A DNA stretch of 34,412 nucleotides from Candidatus Heimdallarchaeota archaeon (GTDB lineage Archaea; Asgardarchaeota; Heimdallarchaeia; Heimdallarchaeales; Heimdallarchaeaceae). Numbering within the stretch: the first letter of the stretch is position 1; each line of letters opens with the position of its first letter. Made by a program: the position numbers and the translations under genes. The stretch spans positions 1-34,412 of the forward strand of contig JAAFKI010000123.1 of the NCBI GenBank assembly GCA_021399345.1, in the 5' to 3' direction. Of the stretch, positions 1,226 to 23,340 are shown piece after piece. The notes beneath the pieces were generated by a model. The model was not told the DNA's origin. It was given only the letters and a program-made list of their open reading frames with translations, and did no database searches.

Positions 1226-3013
1226 CTACAATCCCAACTTCTTCAATTTTGTTTCAGTAGGGATTCCGTTATTATTCCATTCTCTAAGTTGATAATATTC
1301 AAGCTTAGCTGCTTCGAACTGCTCTTTGCTTACAACCAGTCCTTTTGCATCTCCTTCAGGCATTATATCCTTGAAAAATCTTTTAGGAAGAGTATCATCA
1401 TTAGCTGTAATTCCTTCACGTACATTGAACATTCTTGTTAAATTCCATATCCTTTCTCCTACTTCCAAATAACTTTCAGGTGTGTAAGAAAATCCTGTAG
1501 CAGAATTCAACATTTCAACCATTTCAGGGACATTAAAGGGTAAGAAATCACAAACTACTAAGGAAAAACAAGCAGCTCTTTCATCTTGAGATTCCTTGAC
1601 AAACTTGGGAACACCTTCAAATGAAAATCTTGGTAAATCACCACTTAATTCTGCACTTGGAGTCCATGTTCTTTGGTGACAAGCACCTCTATCTGAAGTA
1701 GAATAAGCTAATGCCATCCCCCAAGACCCTCTTGGTTCAACACCTGCTAGTTCATTTCCCTTTACTTGAATAGCAAAATCCATTGAATCATGACCAATTT
1801 TCACAGCAGCAGCTTTTGACCCTTGGGCAAATAAATTACCTATTCTTTCTCTATGTGAAATAAGTTTTATCATCTCAAGTACTGCATCATCATTTCCAAA
1901 AGCTAGATTATCAACATCTGATTGTTGTAAATATCCTTTTTCCACACATTCCATTGCAAAACTTATAGTCGCACCTGCTGTAATCGTATCGATTCCTAAA
2001 TCATCACACATTTCACTTGCTTTTGCTACAGCTGCAAGATCATTAATCCCACAATTTGAACCAAGTAATGCTGTAGTTTCATATTCTGGTCCATCTACAT
2101 CTAAACCAGCATATTTGCCTGTTTCAAATTTGTTAGCTTTACCACAAGCAATTAAACACCCATAACAAGCCCTGTTAGCATAAGTATACTTTTCTAACAT
2201 TGTTTCTCCTGAGATAGAATCAGCCTCTTCAAAGACTCCACTCTGATAATTTTTTGTGGGTAAGAATCCCCCTTGGTTGGACATATTTACCCACATCATT
2301 GTTCCAATTCTATTCCTGTTCTTTACTCCATCATCATTTTGAACCTTAGTGCGAAAAGTTCTTGTAAGTTCTCTAAAATTTTTATGAGCAGCATCAATTT
2401 TTTCAGTTCCACTCACTACGACTGCTTTTAGATTTTTTGACCCCATAACAGCTCCTGAACCACCTCTTCCTGCCATATGAGATCTGCCTGTCATTACATT
2501 TGCATAAGAAACTAGTTTTTCTCCAGCTATACCAATTGATGCCACTTCAGATTTTGGATGTTTTCCTTGAAGTATCTCTTCTGTTGCAAAAGTTCCCCTT
2601 CCCCAAACTTCTTTTGCTGAGATGATTGTAGATCCCTCTGAAGTAACTAACAAATAGCATAGATTTGCTGCTTTTCCTCTAACTAGGATGAAATCATAAC
2701 CAGCTTTTTTCAAACGATGACCAAAGTTTCCACCGATTTGGCTATCAAGATAAATTCCAGTATGGGGAGATTTAGTGACTATACACCATCGACCAGAAGT
2801 TACAACAGAAGTACCTGTTAATGGTCCTGTCATAAAGAGAATGATATTTTCTGGACTTAAAGGATCAACTCCAGCTTCTAATTCATCGTAGAGAATTTTT
2901 GCTCCTAATCCTTTACCTCCAATGAATTTTTCTGCTAATTCCTTATCTAATTTCTTCTCTTGAATTCTTTCAGATGTTAGATCGACATCAAGATACTTGT
3001 GCATATAGCCCAT
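1226..3013 (-). CDS. aor: Tungsten-containing aldehyde:ferredoxin oxidoreductase (AOR family)
   Basis: IGGKGLG, KSPHTG, AGRGGSGAVMGSKNLKA, CxxCxxxC (CYGCLIAC), GPEYET, DDLGID, RGACH and C-terminal GIPTETKLKKLGL. Track start 3022 (TTG); ATG 3013 (MGYMHKYLDVDL) is more likely. Confidence 0.95.
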   Translation of the reverse strand: MGYMHKYLDVDLTSERIQEKKLDKELAEKFIGGKGLGAKILYDELEAGVDPLSPENIILFMTGPLTGTSVVTSGRWCIVTKSPHTGIYLDSQIGGNFGHRLKKAGYDFILVRGKAANLCYLLVTSEGSTIISAKEVWGRGTFATEEILQGKHPKSEVASIGIAGEKLVSYANVMTGRSHMAGRGGSGAVMGSKNLKAVVVSGTEKIDAAHKNFRELTRTFRTKVQNDDGVKNRNRIGTMMWVNMSNQGGFLPTKNYQSGVFEEADSISGETMLEKYTYANRACYGCLIACGKANKFETGKYAGLDVDGPEYETTALLGSNCGINDLAAVAKASEMCDDLGIDTITAGATISFAMECVEKGYLQQSDVDNLAFGNDDAVLEMIKLISHRERIGNLFAQGSKAAAVKIGHDSMDFAIQVKGNELAGVEPRGSWGMALAYSTSDRGACHQRTWTPSAELSGDLPRFSFEGVPKFVKESQDERAACFSLVVCDFLPFNVPEMVEMLNSATGFSYTPESYLEVGERIWNLTRMFNVREGITANDDTLPKRFFKDIMPEGDAKGLVVSKEQFEAAKLEYYQLREWNNNGIPTETKLKKLGL

Positions 3014-3018
3014 TAAAA

Positions 3019-4062
3019 TCAACCCTTAGAAAGTAGTCGATTAATATCAAGAATATCAGTGAGTAAAGCAAAACCTGTTGGAGTTTTTCCTGCACCAGGT
3101 CCCACAATAGTCACGTCATCAACATACTTGGTCGAATAAGTCAAAGCATTAGTTGGCCCCATTATATTGGCTAATGGATGAGTTAAGGGGATTTTTTCAG
3201 GTCTAACATATGCTTCAACAGAACCATCACTCTTAATCTCTGCACCAGCAATCAGTTTCCATCTATATCCTTCTTCCTTAGCCTTAACTATGTCTTCAGC
3301 TGTTATTTTTGTTATGCCTTCACATGGTGGTTCATCTTTGCTCAAATTAGCTCCCATGACAGTATTTGCTAAAATAACGATTTTTCCTAATGCATCATAA
3401 CCTTCAACATCAGCTGTAGGATCTGCTTCTGCATATCCCAGTTCTTGAGCTTGTTCTAGCGCATTCTCATAACTAAGTCCTTTCTCCATCTCTGTTAGAA
3501 TGTAGTTAGTAGTACCATTTACTATGCCCATCGCCTTAGTTATTCCTGCCCCAGCTAGATTGTATAATCCAAGATTCAATGCTGGAGTTCCACTCAACAC
3601 AGTCCCTTCATATCTCATTTCAACACCATTCTCTTTAGCTAAATCTAGTAGCTCTCTGACAGCTAAAGCAATAGGTCCTTTATTTGTTAAAACTACATGT
3701 TTCTTATTTTTCAGAGCAGTTTTGACATGAGTAATTGCCGGTTCTCCAGTCTTGAGATCAGTCCAAGCAACTTCTAGAATAAGATTAGCGTTGGTTTCCT
3801 CAATTGTCTTAATCGAATCCCAACCTTCAATACCATCTCCATAACCCTTTAAATTGCCGTTTTCATTTACTAAATCGAGTAATTTTCGCAAATCTAAACC
3901 AGTTCGTTTATACCAAGACCCTTTCATCGTATCTGATATTGCAACCACTTTGAAGTGGAAATCATAATTCTTCTTGAGATACTCTTCTTGTTCGAGCAAA
4001 ATTTCTGCTAAACCTTGACCAACAACTCCAAATCCAATAAAAGCTATATTAAATTCCATCAT
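3019..4062 (-). CDS. hom: Homoserine dehydrogenase, short form without ACT domain
   Basis: GFGVVG Rossmann motif, HVVLTNKGP, YEGTV, GIVNGTTNYIL, AQELGYAEADPTADVEGYD, GPGAG; ends without a regulatory ACT domain. Confidence 0.95.
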   Translation of the reverse strand: MMEFNIAFIGFGVVGQGLAEILLEQEEYLKKNYDFHFKVVAISDTMKGSWYKRTGLDLRKLLDLVNENGNLKGYGDGIEGWDSIKTIEETNANLILEVAWTDLKTGEPAITHVKTALKNKKHVVLTNKGPIALAVRELLDLAKENGVEMRYEGTVLSGTPALNLGLYNLAGAGITKAMGIVNGTTNYILTEMEKGLSYENALEQAQELGYAEADPTADVEGYDALGKIVILANTVMGANLSKDEPPCEGITKITAEDIVKAKEEGYRWKLIAGAEIKSDGSVEAYVRPEKIPLTHPLANIMGPTNALTYSTKYVDDVTIVGPGAGKTPTGFALLTDILDINRLLSKG

Positions 4063-4185
4063 AAGCCCTCAATAATCTTTCACGCATACTTTAAAGTGGA
4101 ATTGCTTATAAATTTGCTGTCAAGGAGTCTCTTTGTTAGTACAAAAGGTATAAAAGAACAATCAACTAAATAGGAATTGAAATCT

Positions 4186-4773
4186 ATGTCACGATTCTTC
4201 GGTTCAAAAAAACCACCCAAGAGAAACATAACGTCAGCTGAGCAGTATTATAAAGAGAAATATGGAGAAGAAAAAGATGATTCTCCAAGTGATCGAGATA
4301 CAGCAATAATGCAAAAGCTAATTGAAATTGGTGCGTATAATATTAAGAAATCCTCAGGATACTTGACAAAATACTCATTTGATTTACCTATTGAACACGA
4401 AGATGATGTAACTCAAAGAATTACATTAGTAGAAGAAAGCGACAAAGATGTTCATATAGATGCTGAATTAATCCATGAGTTCCCACTGTTTCTGCATGTT
4501 ACAGTTAAGGAAGATTCAAGAAACAGAGAATTTGAGTCATTTACTGGAATGAGTGTCATCAACTTTGTAAACATAAGAACTAACAATGATAAACTTGCAA
4601 CAAAAATTTTAGATGATTCATATGTTAGTGAATACTTCTTCCAACTTATGAAGGATGTTGTTCTAATATCTGCAAATAAAAGCACCCTATCTGCAAAGTT
4701 AACCTCTATTGACAAATTAAAGTACTTCTTCAAATTAATAGCCAGAATGGTTAATATCGCTGAAAAACGATAA
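4186..4773 (+). CDS. Hypothetical protein
   Basis: Track 4177..4773 (TTG); ATG 4186 lies ~30 nt after TATAAAA (4149-4155). Protein-like composition, no recognisable motif. Confidence 0.7.
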   Translation: MSRFFGSKKPPKRNITSAEQYYKEKYGEEKDDSPSDRDTAIMQKLIEIGAYNIKKSSGYLTKYSFDLPIEHEDDVTQRITLVEESDKDVHIDAELIHEFPLFLHVTVKEDSRNREFESFTGMSVINFVNIRTNNDKLATKILDDSYVSEYFFQLMKDVVLISANKSTLSAKLTSIDKLKYFFKLIARMVNIAEKR

Positions 4774-4790
4774 TTTCGGAAGTCGTAAGA

Positions 4791-5606
4791 TTGATAATAG
4801 ATGGTCATGCTCATGCTTTTGGAGAATTTGCTTATTCAGAGAAACTAATTCCACTTATGGATAATTTAGGAGTCGATAAAGTGGTTCTATGTCCAGGTGG
4901 TACTGATCCAGATTATGAATTCAAAATTCCTAAAATAGCTTATAGAAAATCTTCATATAACCACTATTTTCATATCTTAGGAAACGTATTCTTCTTACGT
5001 CTTTTTCATAAAAAAATGAACAATATAGACAATGAATATGTCTTTTCACTCGTGAAAGATTATCCTGACAGATTGATTCAATATTTCTGGATCAATCCTA
5101 ATGATCCTGAGCTAATTTCTACTTTAGAGCAGAACTTTGAGAAAATGTCTTTTGCTGGAATTAAGCTTCATCAATGCTTGAACAAGTTCTCAAATGAAGA
5201 TGAGGGGATGAAAATTATTCCCCAATTCGCAGTTGAAAAGAGCACACCAATTTTTATCCATCTTTATAACTTCAAAGAAGCAAGAAAATTTGTAAAATTA
5301 GCTTATGAATTTCCAAAAGCAAATTATATCATAGCTCATTCTATGGGATTAGAAACTATTGCCAGGAAAGGAGAGAGTCTGAAAAACGTCTATTTTGATA
5401 TTTCAACATATTTCATCATTTCTGAGAAGAGAATACGTTTTGCTATGGACAAGTTTGGGGAAGATAAAGTTTTACTTGGTTCAGATTCACCACTAGGAGA
5501 TAGGAATCTTGAACTAAACATAGAAAAAATTAGAAAAATGGACTTAACAGAAAAACAGAAAAATAAGATTCTTGGAGAGAATATAGCCAAATTGCTACAT
5601 TTGTAA
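4791..5606 (+). CDS. Amidohydrolase family protein (Amidohydro_2, TIM-barrel metallohydrolase)
   Basis: MIIDGHAH (HxH), GIKLH, IFIH, IAHSMG, LGSD metal-binding pattern; TTG start. Confidence 0.9.
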   Translation: MIIDGHAHAFGEFAYSEKLIPLMDNLGVDKVVLCPGGTDPDYEFKIPKIAYRKSSYNHYFHILGNVFFLRLFHKKMNNIDNEYVFSLVKDYPDRLIQYFWINPNDPELISTLEQNFEKMSFAGIKLHQCLNKFSNEDEGMKIIPQFAVEKSTPIFIHLYNFKEARKFVKLAYEFPKANYIIAHSMGLETIARKGESLKNVYFDISTYFIISEKRIRFAMDKFGEDKVLLGSDSPLGDRNLELNIEKIRKMDLTEKQKNKILGENIAKLLHL

Positions 5607-5611
5607 CAATC

Positions 5612-6772
5612 TTACTCGAAAGAATCCTTGATTTGTTGAACAGCTTTTTGAATTGTTTCTATGGATGTAGCATAACTAAATCTAAGATACCCTTCTCCAC
5701 CATCTCCAAAAGCTGATCCGGGTAAACAACATACACCAGCTTTATACAAAATATGATCTGCTATCTCTCGAGAATTCATCCCTGTATCTTTGATATTGGG
5801 AAAGACATAGAAAGCACCTTGAGGGTGTAAACATGTGAAGTTTGGTATGCTATTTAGTCCTTCAACTATCGCATTTCTTCTTTCAAGAAAGGCTTTCATC
5901 ATTTCTTTCAAAGGTTCTTGAGTTCCTTTTAGAGCTGCTATACCAGCTTTTTGAACGAACGATGTTGTACAAGATAAAGCATTAATCATTAAAGTACCCA
6001 TTCTTTCTATTACTTCTTCAGGACCTACTACATAGCCTAAACGCCATCCAGTCATAGCATATGATTTTGAGAACCCATCTAGAATTATCGTTCTTTCTTT
6101 TGATTCATCTCGAATTGCAGGTGAATGGAAAGAAGCTTCATATAGCATCTTGGAGTAAATCTCATCTGATAAGAGGAAAATATTGTTTTTTTCTGCTATT
6201 TCTGCAACTTTGTCTATTTCTTCTTTCGTCATTACAGAACCTGTTGGGTTCTGTGGACTATTCAGGATGATTAGCTTTGTTTTATCAGTGATTCTTTCTT
6301 CAATATCATTGGGATTTAAACGAAATTCGTTTTCTTCTTTCAATTGAATTGGGACATCTCCAGCATTAAGATACTTAGCAACGGAGCCATAAGTAGGAAA
6401 ACCTGGATCAGGATATATTACCTCATCACCAGGATTAACTAAACCAAGCATTGAAAAGAAAATTCCTGGCTTAGCACCAGGTAAAATCAAAATTTGTTCT
6501 ATTGAAGGTCTAAATCCTCTAGTTTGCTCAATTTCATCTTGGATTGCTTGCTTTAGTTCCAAAATTCCAGTAGCTGATACATAGCCAGTGAAATTGTTCT
6601 CAATTGATACATAAGCTGCATCCTTGATATTTTGAGGAGTGGGAAAATCGGGTTGTCCTATTTCGAAATGAAGTATTTCTTTTCCTTCTCTTTCCTGAGC
6701 TTGAGCTTTTGCAAGATATTCAAAAGCTCCCTCTCCTTGAATCCGGTACATTCCGTTTACCATTTTCTTCAT
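5612..6772 (-). CDS. PLP-dependent class I/II aminotransferase (aspartate aminotransferase-like)
   Basis: IGQPDF, NSPQNPTG, SDEIY, GFSKSYAMTGWRLG (PLP lysine), GAFYVF, YLRFSYA. Track start GTG 6781; ATG 6772 follows a GAGTGA SD-like motif. Confidence 0.93.
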   Translation of the reverse strand: MKKMVNGMYRIQGEGAFEYLAKAQAQEREGKEILHFEIGQPDFPTPQNIKDAAYVSIENNFTGYVSATGILELKQAIQDEIEQTRGFRPSIEQILILPGAKPGIFFSMLGLVNPGDEVIYPDPGFPTYGSVAKYLNAGDVPIQLKEENEFRLNPNDIEERITDKTKLIILNSPQNPTGSVMTKEEIDKVAEIAEKNNIFLLSDEIYSKMLYEASFHSPAIRDESKERTIILDGFSKSYAMTGWRLGYVVGPEEVIERMGTLMINALSCTTSFVQKAGIAALKGTQEPLKEMMKAFLERRNAIVEGLNSIPNFTCLHPQGAFYVFPNIKDTGMNSREIADHILYKAGVCCLPGSAFGDGGEGYLRFSYATSIETIQKAVQQIKDSFE

Positions 6773-6788
6773 TACTATCACTCAAAGC

Positions 6789-8072
6789 TTATTTATAATG
6801 GAGTTTTCTAGCTGCAATAAAACTCAAACCTTTTTCTGTAAGAGCTTTAGCTGTATTGTTCACAGATGTATGGCGATCCATATGATTTTGTTCAAGATGG
6901 GGCCATAAACTTTGTTCATCAATTTGTTCCTTTGTAAGGAAATAATCTAGTATATCAGAAGGATGTTCTCTTGTTGGGTCAATTTCCACAGGTCCACCTT
7001 CATGTTTAGCACTAATATTCCTGACTTTTGGAGCAATTTCAAGCAATTCTTGAGTTCTATCATATGGTTGTCTTACAATTGATTTCCATGTTTCAATTAT
7101 GTGATGTTCTAGTCTAACAACGTTTTCAAAACCAAAATTGTTTCTAATTTGAGAACTCATTTCAATTGTCCAGTTGTTAACAGCATTTGAAAGATTGAAT
7201 CCAATCAATGGTGAAGTACCATCTTCTCGAGCAAAGAGTTTTGCAGTCATCAATGTCCAAAGAACAGAATAAGGATTGTCATTACCCATGTACACTGAAA
7301 TCTTAAACTCATTATTTACTCCAAGTTTGTAGAGCATATATCCCAAGATAACAGTTCCAGGATTGATATTCAAAACTTGTTTTACACCATAATTAGTATA
7401 GTAATATAGTAGCTCATCTATCCATTTCAATGCAAATTCATTAGGTTGTCCAACACCTCCAAAGTATCCTGTAATTGTATCAGGACCACCTAGATGAATA
7501 TTAACAGGCATACCATCAGGACCAGGAGCTGTTCCTTTTGTATCTAAGGTTTCTACAATAGAAGCCCCTATTATGTCAACAGCTGCCTGCATTGCCAGAA
7601 GATCCCCATCTTTTTCTTGTTCTTTCATATATCTAACACGGATTATTCTGCCTGGCATAAGATCTTGATTAGAAATGGCTTTTTTTGCACCTTTAATTAA
7701 AAATGGAAAGTATTGACATGCAGAAAATTCTAGAGTTACAGCAAACGAATCGTCAAATTTAATTCTGTCAACTGCATTTCCTAAAATCTTTCTTCTGTAG
7801 TTATCAACGCTAATGAATGCATCATTTTCTCTCTGCTTTATTAACCACTCAAGTTCGTCTATATAATCAGGATTAACTGTTTCGAGCTTTTTATAGATGG
7901 TTTCAATTTTTCTTGCTTCTTTGAATTTCTTATTTATTTCATCAACTCCTCCGTATTTATCTACTAACTGTAGAAGGTCATTAACAAAGGGGTTGTTTTC
8001 ATCAATTAAGAATTTTTGAATCTCATCTATGTTCTCTTTAGAAATGCTCAGTTTATTTCTTATATTTTCCAT
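6789..8072 (-). CDS. Hypothetical protein, predicted (beta/alpha)8 barrel enzyme
   Basis: 427-aa ORF with GGAGG SD (8080-8084); glycine-rich enzyme-like motifs (ETLDTKG, HLGGPDTITGYFGGVGQPN, KISVYMGNDNP, EHH, SAKHEGG); only 16 nt from the aminotransferase start. Confidence 0.85.
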   Translation of the reverse strand: MENIRNKLSISKENIDEIQKFLIDENNPFVNDLLQLVDKYGGVDEINKKFKEARKIETIYKKLETVNPDYIDELEWLIKQRENDAFISVDNYRRKILGNAVDRIKFDDSFAVTLEFSACQYFPFLIKGAKKAISNQDLMPGRIIRVRYMKEQEKDGDLLAMQAAVDIIGASIVETLDTKGTAPGPDGMPVNIHLGGPDTITGYFGGVGQPNEFALKWIDELLYYYTNYGVKQVLNINPGTVILGYMLYKLGVNNEFKISVYMGNDNPYSVLWTLMTAKLFAREDGTSPLIGFNLSNAVNNWTIEMSSQIRNNFGFENVVRLEHHIIETWKSIVRQPYDRTQELLEIAPKVRNISAKHEGGPVEIDPTREHPSDILDYFLTKEQIDEQSLWPHLEQNHMDRHTSVNNTAKALTEKGLSFIAARKLHYK

Positions 8073-8157
8073 ACATATTCCTCCATGAGGGTTCGGGAAT
8101 TTTCACTCATGTTTGGCTATTCTAGAGAAAATGTAATCAATCTTAAATATATCTCTA

Positions 8158-9012
8158 TCAAGATTTGATATTATGTTTGGATTTTATTCTTTCTAGAGCT
8201 TCCTTAGCACTCTCACTAATGAATCTATTATCGTCTTCCAATAAATTCTCTAAAATATCTACAACAAGTATATCCCTAGAATATCCTAAGGCAGATGTAG
8301 CACATTTTCTTATAAACCAATTTTCACTCTCTAAAGCTTGTTTAAGAAGTGATAATCCTTCGTCACCTCCAATCTTTCCAATAGCTGAAGCAGCTTGTTC
8401 TTTTACATCTTGAAAATTGTCATTCATTAAGAGGTTAAAGAGATGCTTAATAGAATTATTACTTCGAATTTCACCCAGAATCCAAGCGATTTTAGATCTA
8501 ACATCCTTGTCAGGATCATCTATGAAGTATTCTAGAAGTTGTTCATCAAGATTTTCTTGCTCCAGCAGCTTTTTCCACCTTTCCTTGGCTATAAGAGATA
8601 AAGCTTCTTCTTTATCACTAGAAGGAACCCAACCCAAATGTTCCAACACTACAACTGATTCAGCCCTTACTTCCCAGCTAGTATCTTCCAATTTGTTCAC
8701 TAGGGAAGGAATAGCATCAAAAACCATCATATCTCCTAATGATCTGGTAGCATTTTTCCTTACCTCTGGTTCTTCATCATTTAAAGCAAGAATTAAAGGA
8801 TTGATTGTTCTTTCATCCGCTATTTTGCCTAGAGCCCAAGCTATGCGGCTCCTTACTAGTGCAACATCTTCCTTGAGCATTTTTATAAGAACAGAAACTG
8901 TTTGTTTTTTGCCAGGGTTATCAACAATGGAGTTAATTGTAAAAATTCGAACATGAAGGTCTTCGTCCTTTAAACTTTCAAGTAAAGCTTCTACTTCATC
9001 ATCTTCAATCAT
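8158..9012 (-). CDS. HEAT-repeat (PBS-lyase HEAT-like) protein
   Basis: Repeated L..D....VR..[AI]A..LG.I units (VRSRIAWALGKI, VRKNATRSLGDM, VRSKIAWILGEI, VKEQAASAIGKI, IRKCATSALG). Confidence 0.9.
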   Translation of the reverse strand: MIEDDEVEALLESLKDEDLHVRIFTINSIVDNPGKKQTVSVLIKMLKEDVALVRSRIAWALGKIADERTINPLILALNDEEPEVRKNATRSLGDMMVFDAIPSLVNKLEDTSWEVRAESVVVLEHLGWVPSSDKEEALSLIAKERWKKLLEQENLDEQLLEYFIDDPDKDVRSKIAWILGEIRSNNSIKHLFNLLMNDNFQDVKEQAASAIGKIGGDEGLSLLKQALESENWFIRKCATSALGYSRDILVVDILENLLEDDNRFISESAKEALERIKSKHNIKS

Positions 9013-9035
9013 TTATTTTCCACTCTCTAAAGATG

Positions 9036-9341
9036 TTAATTACTTAGACACTCCCACGAATCTACCAGAAGCTGATATTCTTGATATGTATCATCCTTAA
9101 TTTTTTGTGGTCTCTTGGAGCTTCCTTTAGTAAGAATTATTTCTCCATTGATTTTCATTTTTCCTCTGCATGTAATTGGTTCTCGAGAATAAATTACGAT
9201 TTGTTCTCCGTTATCTAAATCAAAATAATTTATATGATTCCTATCACTAATGAATTTAATTAGATGCTGCCACGGGATTTTTGATATATTCCCCGTTAGA
9301 GTTATTTTTTCTCCAACAGATTCAGTAAAATTATATCTCAA
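9036..9341 (-). CDS. Small hypothetical protein, beta-rich (OB-fold-like)
   Basis: 101 aa, TTG start; pattern GEKITLTG...YFD...QIVIY...KINGEI...YQLLVDSW suggests a five-strand barrel; 23 nt upstream of the HEAT gene. Confidence 0.65.
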   Translation of the reverse strand: MRYNFTESVGEKITLTGNISKIPWQHLIKFISDRNHINYFDLDNGEQIVIYSREPITCRGKMKINGEIILTKGSSKRPQKIKDDTYQEYQLLVDSWECLSN

Positions 9342-21794: not shown

Positions 21795-21969
21795 ACGCTG
21801 CATACAGCTGTTAATATTAAAAAAAAATAGAAAAACAAACCCTTGAAGAGAAACTCAATCAAGAATATGTTACACAATTTGGTTTAACTACAAAATTGTC
21901 ATAGATAAACCTTTAATATTACGGACAATTGACGGTTTTTTAGAATCCTATCTTTGTTAGGTGAAAATT

Positions 21970-23340
21970 ATGAGTGAAAAACAACTTACAAAAGAAGAAT
22001 TATTAGCAAAAGCTGAAAAACCTGCAAAAGACGCTTTGAAACTTCATCCTTTCTACCAAGGGAAGATTCAAGTTGTACCTAAATGCAGTATTTGGGATTT
22101 TTCGGCCTTTGGAGTTTGGTATACTCCTGGAGTAGCAGCAAGCTGTAGAGCTATAGCAGATGATCCAGCTGAATCATTCAAACAAACTAATCGTGCTAAT
22201 ACAATCGCAGTAGTAAGCGATGGTACTCGTGTTCTCGGACTTGGTGACATCGGTCCAGCGGCTGGGCAACCTGTCATGGAAGGAAAAGCATTGCTCTTCA
22301 AATACCTTGGAGGTGTTGATGCAGTCCCATTAAGCATAGGAATGACCAATGAAAGACCAAGTGCAGAAGAAATAATTAATTTTGTAAAATTAATTCAACC
22401 TTCATTTGGAGGTATTAATCTAGAAGATATTTCTAAACCAAAATGCTACAAAGTTCTTGAGACTTTAAGAAATGATCCAGAAATAACAATACCTGTTTGG
22501 CATGATGATGCGCAAGGTACCGCCTCTGTTGTCACAGCTGGTGTTATTGGAGCATCTAAACACGTTGGTAAGGAGCTTGATCAAATTAAAGTTGCTATGT
22601 TGGGTGTTGGTTCCGCTAACACTCGAACTGCTTACGTTCTAGAATCTGCTGGTGTTCCTCTAAAAAACATAATCATGGCTGATTCTAAAGGTATTATCAC
22701 TAAAGATCGTCCTGACATTATTAAGGGTAAAGACTATGATACTTTCAAGTATGACTTAGCTCAAAAAACCAATGCTGAAGGTTTAGCTGGAGGTTTTGGT
22801 GAGGCTATGAAAGGTGCTGATGTTATGATTTCAGCTTCCAAATCTGAACCAGGAACTGTTAAGTCTGAATGGATTTCTACTATGGCATCTGACAGTATCG
22901 TATTTGCTTGCGCTAATCCACTTCCAGAAATTTATCCCTGGGATGCAAAGGAAGCTGGTGCTAGAGTTATGGGTACAGGTCGCAGTGATTTTGATAACCA
23001 GATCAATAACAGTCTTGGTTTTCCAGGTATTTTTAGAGGTACTCTTGATGTTAACGCTTCTACCATCACCGACGAGATGTGTGTAGCAGCTGCTCAAGCT
23101 ATTGCTGATATTGCCATTAAGAAAGGTCTCAGAGACGATTATGTCATTCCAACCATGGACGACTGGGAGATTTTCCCCTACGTAGCATCTAAAGTAGGTA
23201 TGAAAGCTATTGAACTAGGTGTTGCTCGTAAAGTTTATGAGGAAGACGAACTTTACAAAATGGCTCAAGAGAGAATCAAGTATGCTCGAGATCTTACCAA
23301 GAGTATGATGGATACTGGTTTCATTAAACCAAAAATCTAA
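21970..23340 (+). CDS. mae: NAD(P)-dependent malic enzyme
   Basis: [74 protein letters not shown] at 21959-21964 favours ATG 21970 over GTG 21961. Confidence 0.95.

Follow-up and report, generated by a model that had tools for sequence, protein, structure and literature searches.

Methanethiol is released from methionine or its keto acid by methionine gamma-lyase and by the fungal STR3, a pyridoxal phosphate (PLP) enzyme that demethiolates KMBA/KMTB (PMC4763297). The barrel enzyme described here, X, is proposed to do likewise; however, both known enzymes use PLP and have another fold, and methionine gamma-lyase yields 2-oxobutanoate, not the 4-hydroxy-2-oxobutanoate (HOB) that we propose for X. 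The canavanine pathway resembles the proposed route in a different respect: canavanine gamma-lyase carries out a C4 elimination plus water addition, after which Hom and an aldehyde dehydrogenase lead from homoserine via aspartate semialdehyde to aspartate, as has been tested (PMC9533460). Canavanine gamma-lyase, however, depends on PLP and takes the amino acid as its substrate, whereas the proposed substrate of X, a barrel that works without PLP, is a 2-oxo acid, and the NAD-linked dehydrogenase of that pathway would be replaced by an aldehyde:ferredoxin oxidoreductase (AOR). In engineered strains, HOB is handled by PanB, pyruvate aldolases and transaminases, which in a homoserine cycle interconvert pyruvate plus formaldehyde, HOB and homoserine (10.1101/2025.02.17.638773). 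This cycle is non-native, assimilatory and without a counterpart of X, whereas the X gene sets are natural, dedicated and probably serve breakdown. The 2-oxopent-4-enoate hydratase that works with DmpG/DmpF also makes a 4-hydroxy-2-oxo acid, which the aldolase splits into pyruvate and a channelled aldehyde; there the aldehyde is acetaldehyde, while in the X route it would be formaldehyde, and the hydratase presumably has the FAH-superfamily fold, unlike X. In its barrel fold X resembles the U32 proteins (PF01136: UbiU/UbiV, RlhA, TrhP, Mk0906) and a cysteine-poor group of 315 aa, here called Y, whose function is likewise putative; it differs from the U32 barrels in lacking their Cys motif and in adding a helical domain of 105 residues as well as a long loop that is conserved. 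That X works like a gamma-lyase/hydratase, feeding either a 4-hydroxy-2-oxo acid aldolase or homoserine oxidation, is to us an even bet.

The window analysed here is a contig of 34,412 nucleotides from a Candidatus Heimdallarchaeota archaeon, and X is encoded at 6789..8072 on the minus strand as a 427-aa orphan. Its Shine-Dalgarno sequence GGAGG (8080..8084, minus strand) lies 7 nt upstream of the ATG; the same motif precedes 50 of 1271 long open reading frames in the host genome against 3 at a control position, and therefore exceeds chance. Downstream follows a class I/II (aspartate-type) PLP aminotransferase (5612..6772, minus strand; PF00155, E 4e-67) that scores under all NCBIfam equivalog cut-offs and that we propose as a transaminase for Met/KMTB and HOB/homoserine, where KMTB is 2-oxo-4-methylthiobutanoate, the keto acid of methionine. 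The two genes are separated by 16 nt if the aminotransferase starts at its ATG (6772), and by 7 nt if it starts at an in-frame GTG (6781); the ribosome-binding site, the spacing and the aminotransferase pointed out in a preliminary description of this DNA are all present. From this spacing and its conservation we infer that X and the aminotransferase are co-transcribed, and short RNA contigs spanning the junction, from one RNA sample with low cover, weakly hint at the same. The homoserine dehydrogenase gene hom (3019..4062, minus strand; NF004912, 424 bits against a cut-off of 373), a single copy in the host genome and proposed to run in the oxidative direction, ends 1.55 kb from the aminotransferase and is followed by a tungsten-type aor (1226..3022, minus strand; PF02730 and PF01314), whose proposed reaction is aspartate semialdehyde to aspartate. 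In the host, this four-gene operon is interrupted by two genes on the plus strand (4177..5606), encoding a 198-aa unknown protein and an amidohydrolase-2, which are not part of the proposed pathway; the pair is missing between aminotransferase and hom in nine other loci (L006, L008, L013, L015, L017, L020, L023, L025 and L027). The order X, aminotransferase, hom, aor is contiguous in 9 of 80 archaeal loci, all from relatives of the host, which makes the suggested link to hom-aor within an undescribed C4 route a real one, while the suggested link to malic enzyme is not supported: that gene is 14 kb distant, and among the other loci fetched a single one has it close to X.

The TIM barrel that the preliminary description had read into X is confirmed by an AlphaFold model (pLDDT 91, pTM 0.90), which features a helical N-domain (residues 1-105) and an eight-stranded (beta/alpha)8 barrel in which all eight strands named earlier are real (112-117, 142-145, 171-175, 232-234, 255-258, 289-293, 320-326 and 353-357). 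A second model reached a pLDDT of 90.5, and all top structural matches to X are barrels. The model is poor in the conserved loop 193-208, a possible lid. Among 216 non-redundant homologues, E115, S117, R142, R147, D177, N191, H193, N235, K257, S259, D265, N266, R320 and H324 are invariant, N293 is invariant or nearly so, and E322, K356, H357 and E358 are 99% conserved. These polar residues are located on the strands or just past them, and the conserved acidic and basic residues expected at the barrel mouth are indeed found there, with E115, K257, H324, K356, H357 and E358 at or after strands. The lone Cys, C119, is kept in 49% of the homologues and no alignment column is higher in Cys, so the earlier argument that X cannot hold a 4Fe-4S cluster stands. 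Solved structures match X only as generic barrels (Z at most 13, identity at most 13%), with either the whole protein or the barrel alone as query, a level that excludes no family; BKACE/DUF849, mannonate dehydratase and the DRE-TIM metallolyases reach Z 11-12.5, level with glycosidases and designed barrels. Foldseek ranks class II fructose-bisphosphate aldolases first (TM by query 0.33-0.45, rmsd 6-12 Å), an identity that we rejected as these TM values do not exceed 0.45 and neither Pfam nor PDB sequences gave a match. A PLP gamma-lyase of fold-type I was likewise dismissed, given the barrel fold and the lack of a PF01053 or PF00155 match; X could nonetheless work in a similar way.

X is a real, very conserved and uncharacterised family outside all named families tested. 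With X itself or its alignments as query, no match was found in Pfam, NCBIfam or PDB sequences, in agreement with the preliminary description's reading of an uncharacterised enzyme; Atlas feature searches with X returned no usable match, and the literature searched describes neither X nor Y nor the aldolase-Fae fusion introduced below. At least 8,000 homologues exist (8,000 of 8,000 scored candidates were homologous), nearly all full-length members fall within one 50% cluster, and a sequence of 26% identity (P0262) proved to be a frameshifted ordinary member and no bridge. The window belongs to a Heimdallarchaeia genome, and its nearest loci are 96-97% identical. Beyond 60 of 131 Asgard genomes, each with a single copy, X occurs in Bathyarchaeia, Anaerolineae, cyanobacteria and on one Polaromonas plasmid, the taxonomy of metagenome loci being taken from named homologues. 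As related genomes are not independent, the co-occurrence counts given for X are overstated by kinship.

What takes the place of X in Asgard archaea that lack it? In genomes without X, a gene of 312-322 aa, Y, flanks aldolase-Fae in the same operon slot and carries the RefSeq label 'U32 family peptidase'. Across the 131 Asgard genomes, 60 have X, 21 have Y and none has both, and the exclusion is seen even within a single family (f19), where one genome has X (G020) and another Y (G031). A profile alignment of X and Y covers the whole barrel (225 columns, probability 88%, E 3e-6) and places the barrel-mouth residues E115/S117, R142, K257/S259, H324, K356 and E358 in register. Since the two never co-occur and these residues align, X and Y probably do similar jobs. 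Y in turn aligns with true U32 proteins (probability 83%, E 8e-6), and U32-like Atlas clusters of 309-316 aa match X at a TM of 0.73-0.75 by target. The direct comparison of X with the true U32 profile gave 0.2%, and PF01136 matched neither X nor any of 85 aligned members. The U32 resemblance proposed in the preliminary description thus holds at the level of the superfamily, by way of Y, but not as a direct family match. X falls within the wide U32-fold superfamily through transitive profile and structure similarity, a kinship of moderate strength because the alignments are thin; by these alignments and models, X would be an Fe-S-free family of that superfamily. At one locus, on a Mycobacterium plasmid, a 5'-truncated Y lies 8 nt before dmpF-dmpG, a position normally held by the hydratase that makes the 4-hydroxy-2-oxo acid.

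The genes that accompany X fall into three downstream modules. In the taxonomic class of the host the module begins with the aminotransferase, which directly follows X in 20 of 80 archaeal loci. In 55 of the 80, belonging to other Asgards and Bathyarchaeia, X adjoins aldolase-Fae, a DHDPS-family aldolase fused to Fae, in which the Schiff-base motifs are kept and the Arg of DapA is missing (53 of 53 copies); in the Asgard family f13, this fusion is found in 14 of 15 genomes with X and 1 of 9 without. In 45 of about 90 loci, mostly bacterial, the gene before X is a PanB paralogue with pocket motifs of its own, and genes for Fhs, FolD or CODH/ACS are often close by. That these interchangeable modules converge points to a shared metabolite, HOB, as no other could both yield homoserine by the action of an aminotransferase and be split by an aldolase or PanB into pyruvate and a one-carbon unit; the partners of X very probably meet there. 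Within the host family, genomes with X have hom, and those lacking X, two closed genomes among them, lack hom too; in the profiling against hom, aor and aminotransferases proposed in the preliminary description, hom thus disappears along with X. Ask, Asd, ThrB, MetX, HcyBio, DapA and AroB-prime were undetected in the host (88.6% complete) and in the relatives searched, which leaves homoserine without an ordinary source or sink in the host; ThrC-like genes exist, in unrelated clusters. A supply of aspartate semialdehyde for aromatic amino acids was rejected, as AroB-prime was not found in the five genomes searched.

Upstream of HOB, several signs point towards methionine. In 31 loci, X stands beside a dehydrogenase of the Glu/Leu/Phe/Val family that carries a CBS pair. 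Compared with glutamate dehydrogenase, its pocket has M at K89 in 24 of 30 copies (I, L or V in the rest), G at A163 in 27 of 27, and A or G at S380 in 20 of 20, positions that we take to follow Clostridium symbiosum numbering; Phe and Trp dehydrogenases presumably share some of these changes. In the host and in Bathyarchaeia, ordinary glutamate dehydrogenases retain K, A and S. Changes at three sites, written K89L, A163L and S367A, made a halophilic glutamate dehydrogenase accept methionine, norleucine and norvaline (PMC5708825). The residues of the X-linked enzyme thus show a predicted fit for a long neutral side chain, not uniquely that of methionine. The best PDB match of the CBS pair is MJ0100, a binder of SAM/MTA, by a small margin (50.8 against 49 bits for the next). 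In f13, the X operon has no aminotransferase, so the dehydrogenase is expected there, and all 15 genomes with X have it; it occurs in 19 of the 24 f13 genomes and in no other Asgard family searched. A PatB C-S lyase follows aor in three Hodarchaeales loci, and in bacteria Cys/Met lyases and Lrp regulators are repeatedly encoded close to X; neither a SAM riboswitch nor a T-box was found in 24 bacterial X loci. Against the methionine reading, most genomes of another Asgard family (f10) link X to neither the aminotransferase nor the dehydrogenase; its neighbours there are an ECF S-component and a ThrC-like gene in divergent orientation. A further point against it is that the host family already has a Cys/Met gamma-lyase-like gene (382 bits, under the methionine gamma-lyase cut-off); the idea that X replaces methionine gamma-lyase was set aside, as there is no clean pattern and no match attains the family cut-off.

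On this evidence, X is most likely a PLP-free and Fe-S-free lyase/hydratase acting at C3-C4 of a 4-substituted 2-oxobutanoate, with KMTB as its most likely substrate. Our main reading, to which we assign a probability of about 0.5, is that X would remove methanethiol from KMTB and add water to give HOB, which the host would convert via homoserine and aspartate semialdehyde to aspartate. We infer the substrate, metal and direction of X along with each of its reactions, and picture them as follows. Methionine would be deaminated or transaminated to KMTB, which would be bound by a metal held by Glu and His residues of strands 1, 7 and 8 (E115, E322/H324, H357/E358), together with an Arg. A base, K257 or K356, would take the C3 proton, and methanethiol would depart, as the thioether of KMTB is beta to the ketone and enolisation at C3 lets it leave; water would then join the enzyme-bound 2-oxo-3-butenoate to form HOB. 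The Glu/His set, the Arg and the two Lys would suit a metal-assisted enolate enzyme, in which we place the metal site from the positions of the strands. In the host, a single aminotransferase could move the amino group from methionine to HOB, making KMTB and homoserine at once. Hom would then oxidise homoserine to aspartate semialdehyde and AOR the semialdehyde to aspartate, both pulling the sequence forward, for a net conversion of methionine to aspartate, CH3SH, NAD(P)H and reduced ferredoxin. Exchanging the thioether for water is probably not a downhill step, so that a pull from further along the pathway is needed. Elsewhere, HOB would be split, by aldolase-Fae into pyruvate and methylene-H4MPT or by the PanB paralogue into pyruvate and methylene-THF.

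How do other readings of the same genes fare? X might run in reverse and add methanethiol or sulfide to HOB, giving the keto acid of methionine or homocysteine in an ATP-free biosynthesis from pyruvate and a one-carbon unit, or from aspartate via AOR, Hom and the aminotransferase. In its favour, the reaction should run more readily towards the thioether, MJ0100, a biosynthetic enzyme, is known to have a SAM-sensing CBS pair, Asd, HcyBio and MetX are missing in the host family and most f10 genomes, and the ThrC-like gene divergent from X in f10 would also fit. Yet X, Asd and HcyBio co-exist in f13, which speaks against X as a replacement for homocysteine synthesis and favours the breakdown direction; the closed host-family genomes lacking X lack Hom as well, the neighbours are catabolic (peptide transporters, tyrosine phenol-lyase, tdh-kbl, Fhs/FolD), and Fae favours the capture of formaldehyde. 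We therefore regard synthesis as unlikely. Just as unlikely, in our estimate, is that X is a hydratase only, receiving 2-oxo-3-butenoate from another enzyme or from spontaneous elimination, or that it takes another 4-substituted 2-oxobutanoate (derived from homocysteine, S-methylmethionine, O-acylhomoserine, 2,4-diaminobutyrate or a canavanine-like compound). All evidence for the HOB node fits this equally well, Y precedes dmpF-dmpG as a plain hydratase would, and PatB and the Cys/Met lyases beside X could supply the unsaturated acid; however, the commonest operons, X with aldolase-Fae and PanB, X and dehydrogenase, contain no second lyase, so that the step from the oxo acid to HOB must fall to X itself, or else to an unlinked gene.

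Some X loci are sugar or sugar-acid clusters, which points against the methionine reading. PTS genes, PfkB/FGGY kinases, GarD/UxaA and IlvD occur there, Y is found in a sugar ABC operon, and mannonate dehydratase is among the fold matches of X (Z 11.3); X could then be a threonate/erythronate dehydratase making HOB, or a C4 dehydratase or epimerase of 2-keto-3-deoxy acids. These loci are a minority, though, and often have their own IlvD or GarD dehydratase able to feed a shared HOB step, the IlvD-linked copies of X form a divergent subfamily changed at E174, H323, E327 and D373, and the methionine-type dehydrogenase would be left unexplained, all of which makes a sugar-acid enzyme quite improbable. 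We give the same low standing to any other role at the HOB node, be it aldolase, isomerase, a pantoate-related step or a U32-type hydroxylation factor, despite the aldolases that head the Foldseek matches, the U32 kinship, and neighbours (PanB, ApbA, IlvD) that are pantoate genes too. A separate aldolase or PanB-type gene usually partners X, which renders an aldolase unlikely; of the lyase, aldolase or isomerase of an oxo acid foreseen in the preliminary description, it is the lyase that stands. A pantothenate role was rejected, as the host's ordinary PanB lies within a complete PanB-PanE-PoK-PPS-CoaBC cluster elsewhere, and a hydroxylation factor would lack a conserved Cys for its Fe-S cluster.

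Finally, we would like to place X in the context of methionine breakdown by sediment microbes. Three Asgard OTUs showed no uptake of free 13C-methionine in one qSIP study (PMC11905757), which counts against the methionine reading, though cultured Asgards feed on peptides. Methylsulfides made from methionine are suspected to pass from one cultured strain of Hodarchaeales to a methylotrophic methanogen (10.1101/2025.02.26.640444). At slightly less than even odds, the U32 fold has given rise, in X, to PLP-free C-S lyase/hydratases of a new class, and X supplies the step so far missing from a natural pathway that leads from methionine to methanethiol and HOB, and on to pyruvate and a pterin-bound one-carbon unit or to aspartate. 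This pathway would be widespread among Asgard archaea of sediments, Bathyarchaeia and Chloroflexota, and would start with a natural methionine dehydrogenase under SAM regulation. If this is true, the dapA, panB, gdh and hom annotations in X-bearing genomes would need correction, and the aldol chemistry of HOB would prove to exist in nature as well as in engineered one-carbon pathways. It would also give a function to an unnamed, very conserved family, which counts more than 8,000 sequence clusters, and to Y, the cousin labelled a 'U32 peptidase', and would add a third route of methionine breakdown, a source of methanethiol in abundant peptide-fermenting microbes of the sediment.

Within the window, a HEAT-repeat gene and a 101-aa gene without known function (8158-9341) lie upstream of the orphan barrel enzyme X; their synteny is limited to the genus, and we saw no pathway connection for them. 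The preliminary description had tentatively linked the malic enzyme (21961-23340) to the pathway of X; this connection is not supported, as the gene lies 14 kb away and its proximity to X is not conserved.

In Asgard family f10 (loci L174-L189), a gene for an ECF-type S-component precedes X, and a ThrC-like gene is often divergent from it. These genomes also encode, away from the X locus, two adjacent and divergent Fae-domain proteins. Genome G000 carries two ThrC-like genes (contigs C19 and C192), one within a xanthine-dehydrogenase/pyrimidine cluster and the other adjoining luciferase-like oxidoreductases; ThrB was not detectable in this genome, and phosphohomoserine is probably not the substrate of either protein. 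In cyanobacteria and one Asgard family, the gene for a divergent 350-aa DHDPS-like protein stands ahead of X (L089:452-7310 and L190:6085-8417). In Calothrix it is accompanied by genes for a TPP decarboxylase, a reductase resembling ApbA and a dehydrogenase of the methionine type. A divergent X subfamily (P0128, P0276 and P0277; loci L082, L083 and L173), with 37% identity and changed barrel-mouth residues, is encoded in an operon that also specifies IlvD and an ABC transporter of the branched-chain type; this subfamily may have a different substrate.

Y, a 315-aa, cysteine-poor 'U32 family peptidase' (L209:6813-7760; also L208, L210, L211 and L212), is a distant homologue of X; the two are mutually exclusive, and Y adjoins an aldolase-Fae fusion. 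On an Enterobacter plasmid, a gene resembling Y belongs to an operon (L215:6910-15873) that also encodes a phosphotransferase, an aminotransferase, a heme-oxygenase-like oxidase and a peptidase, and that looks like a small-molecule biosynthetic cluster.

Among the dehydrogenases, Bathyarchaeia glutamate dehydrogenases bear an N-terminal extension of ~170 residues (L203:850-2619, L204:862-2649). A further amino-acid dehydrogenase, usually annotated as glutamate dehydrogenase, combines a methionine-type pocket with an MJ0100-like CBS pair (L153:5049-6914; also L205-L207). Its bacterial and Asgard (family f13) copies share 62-67% identity. The protein is a candidate for a natural SAM-regulated methionine dehydrogenase.
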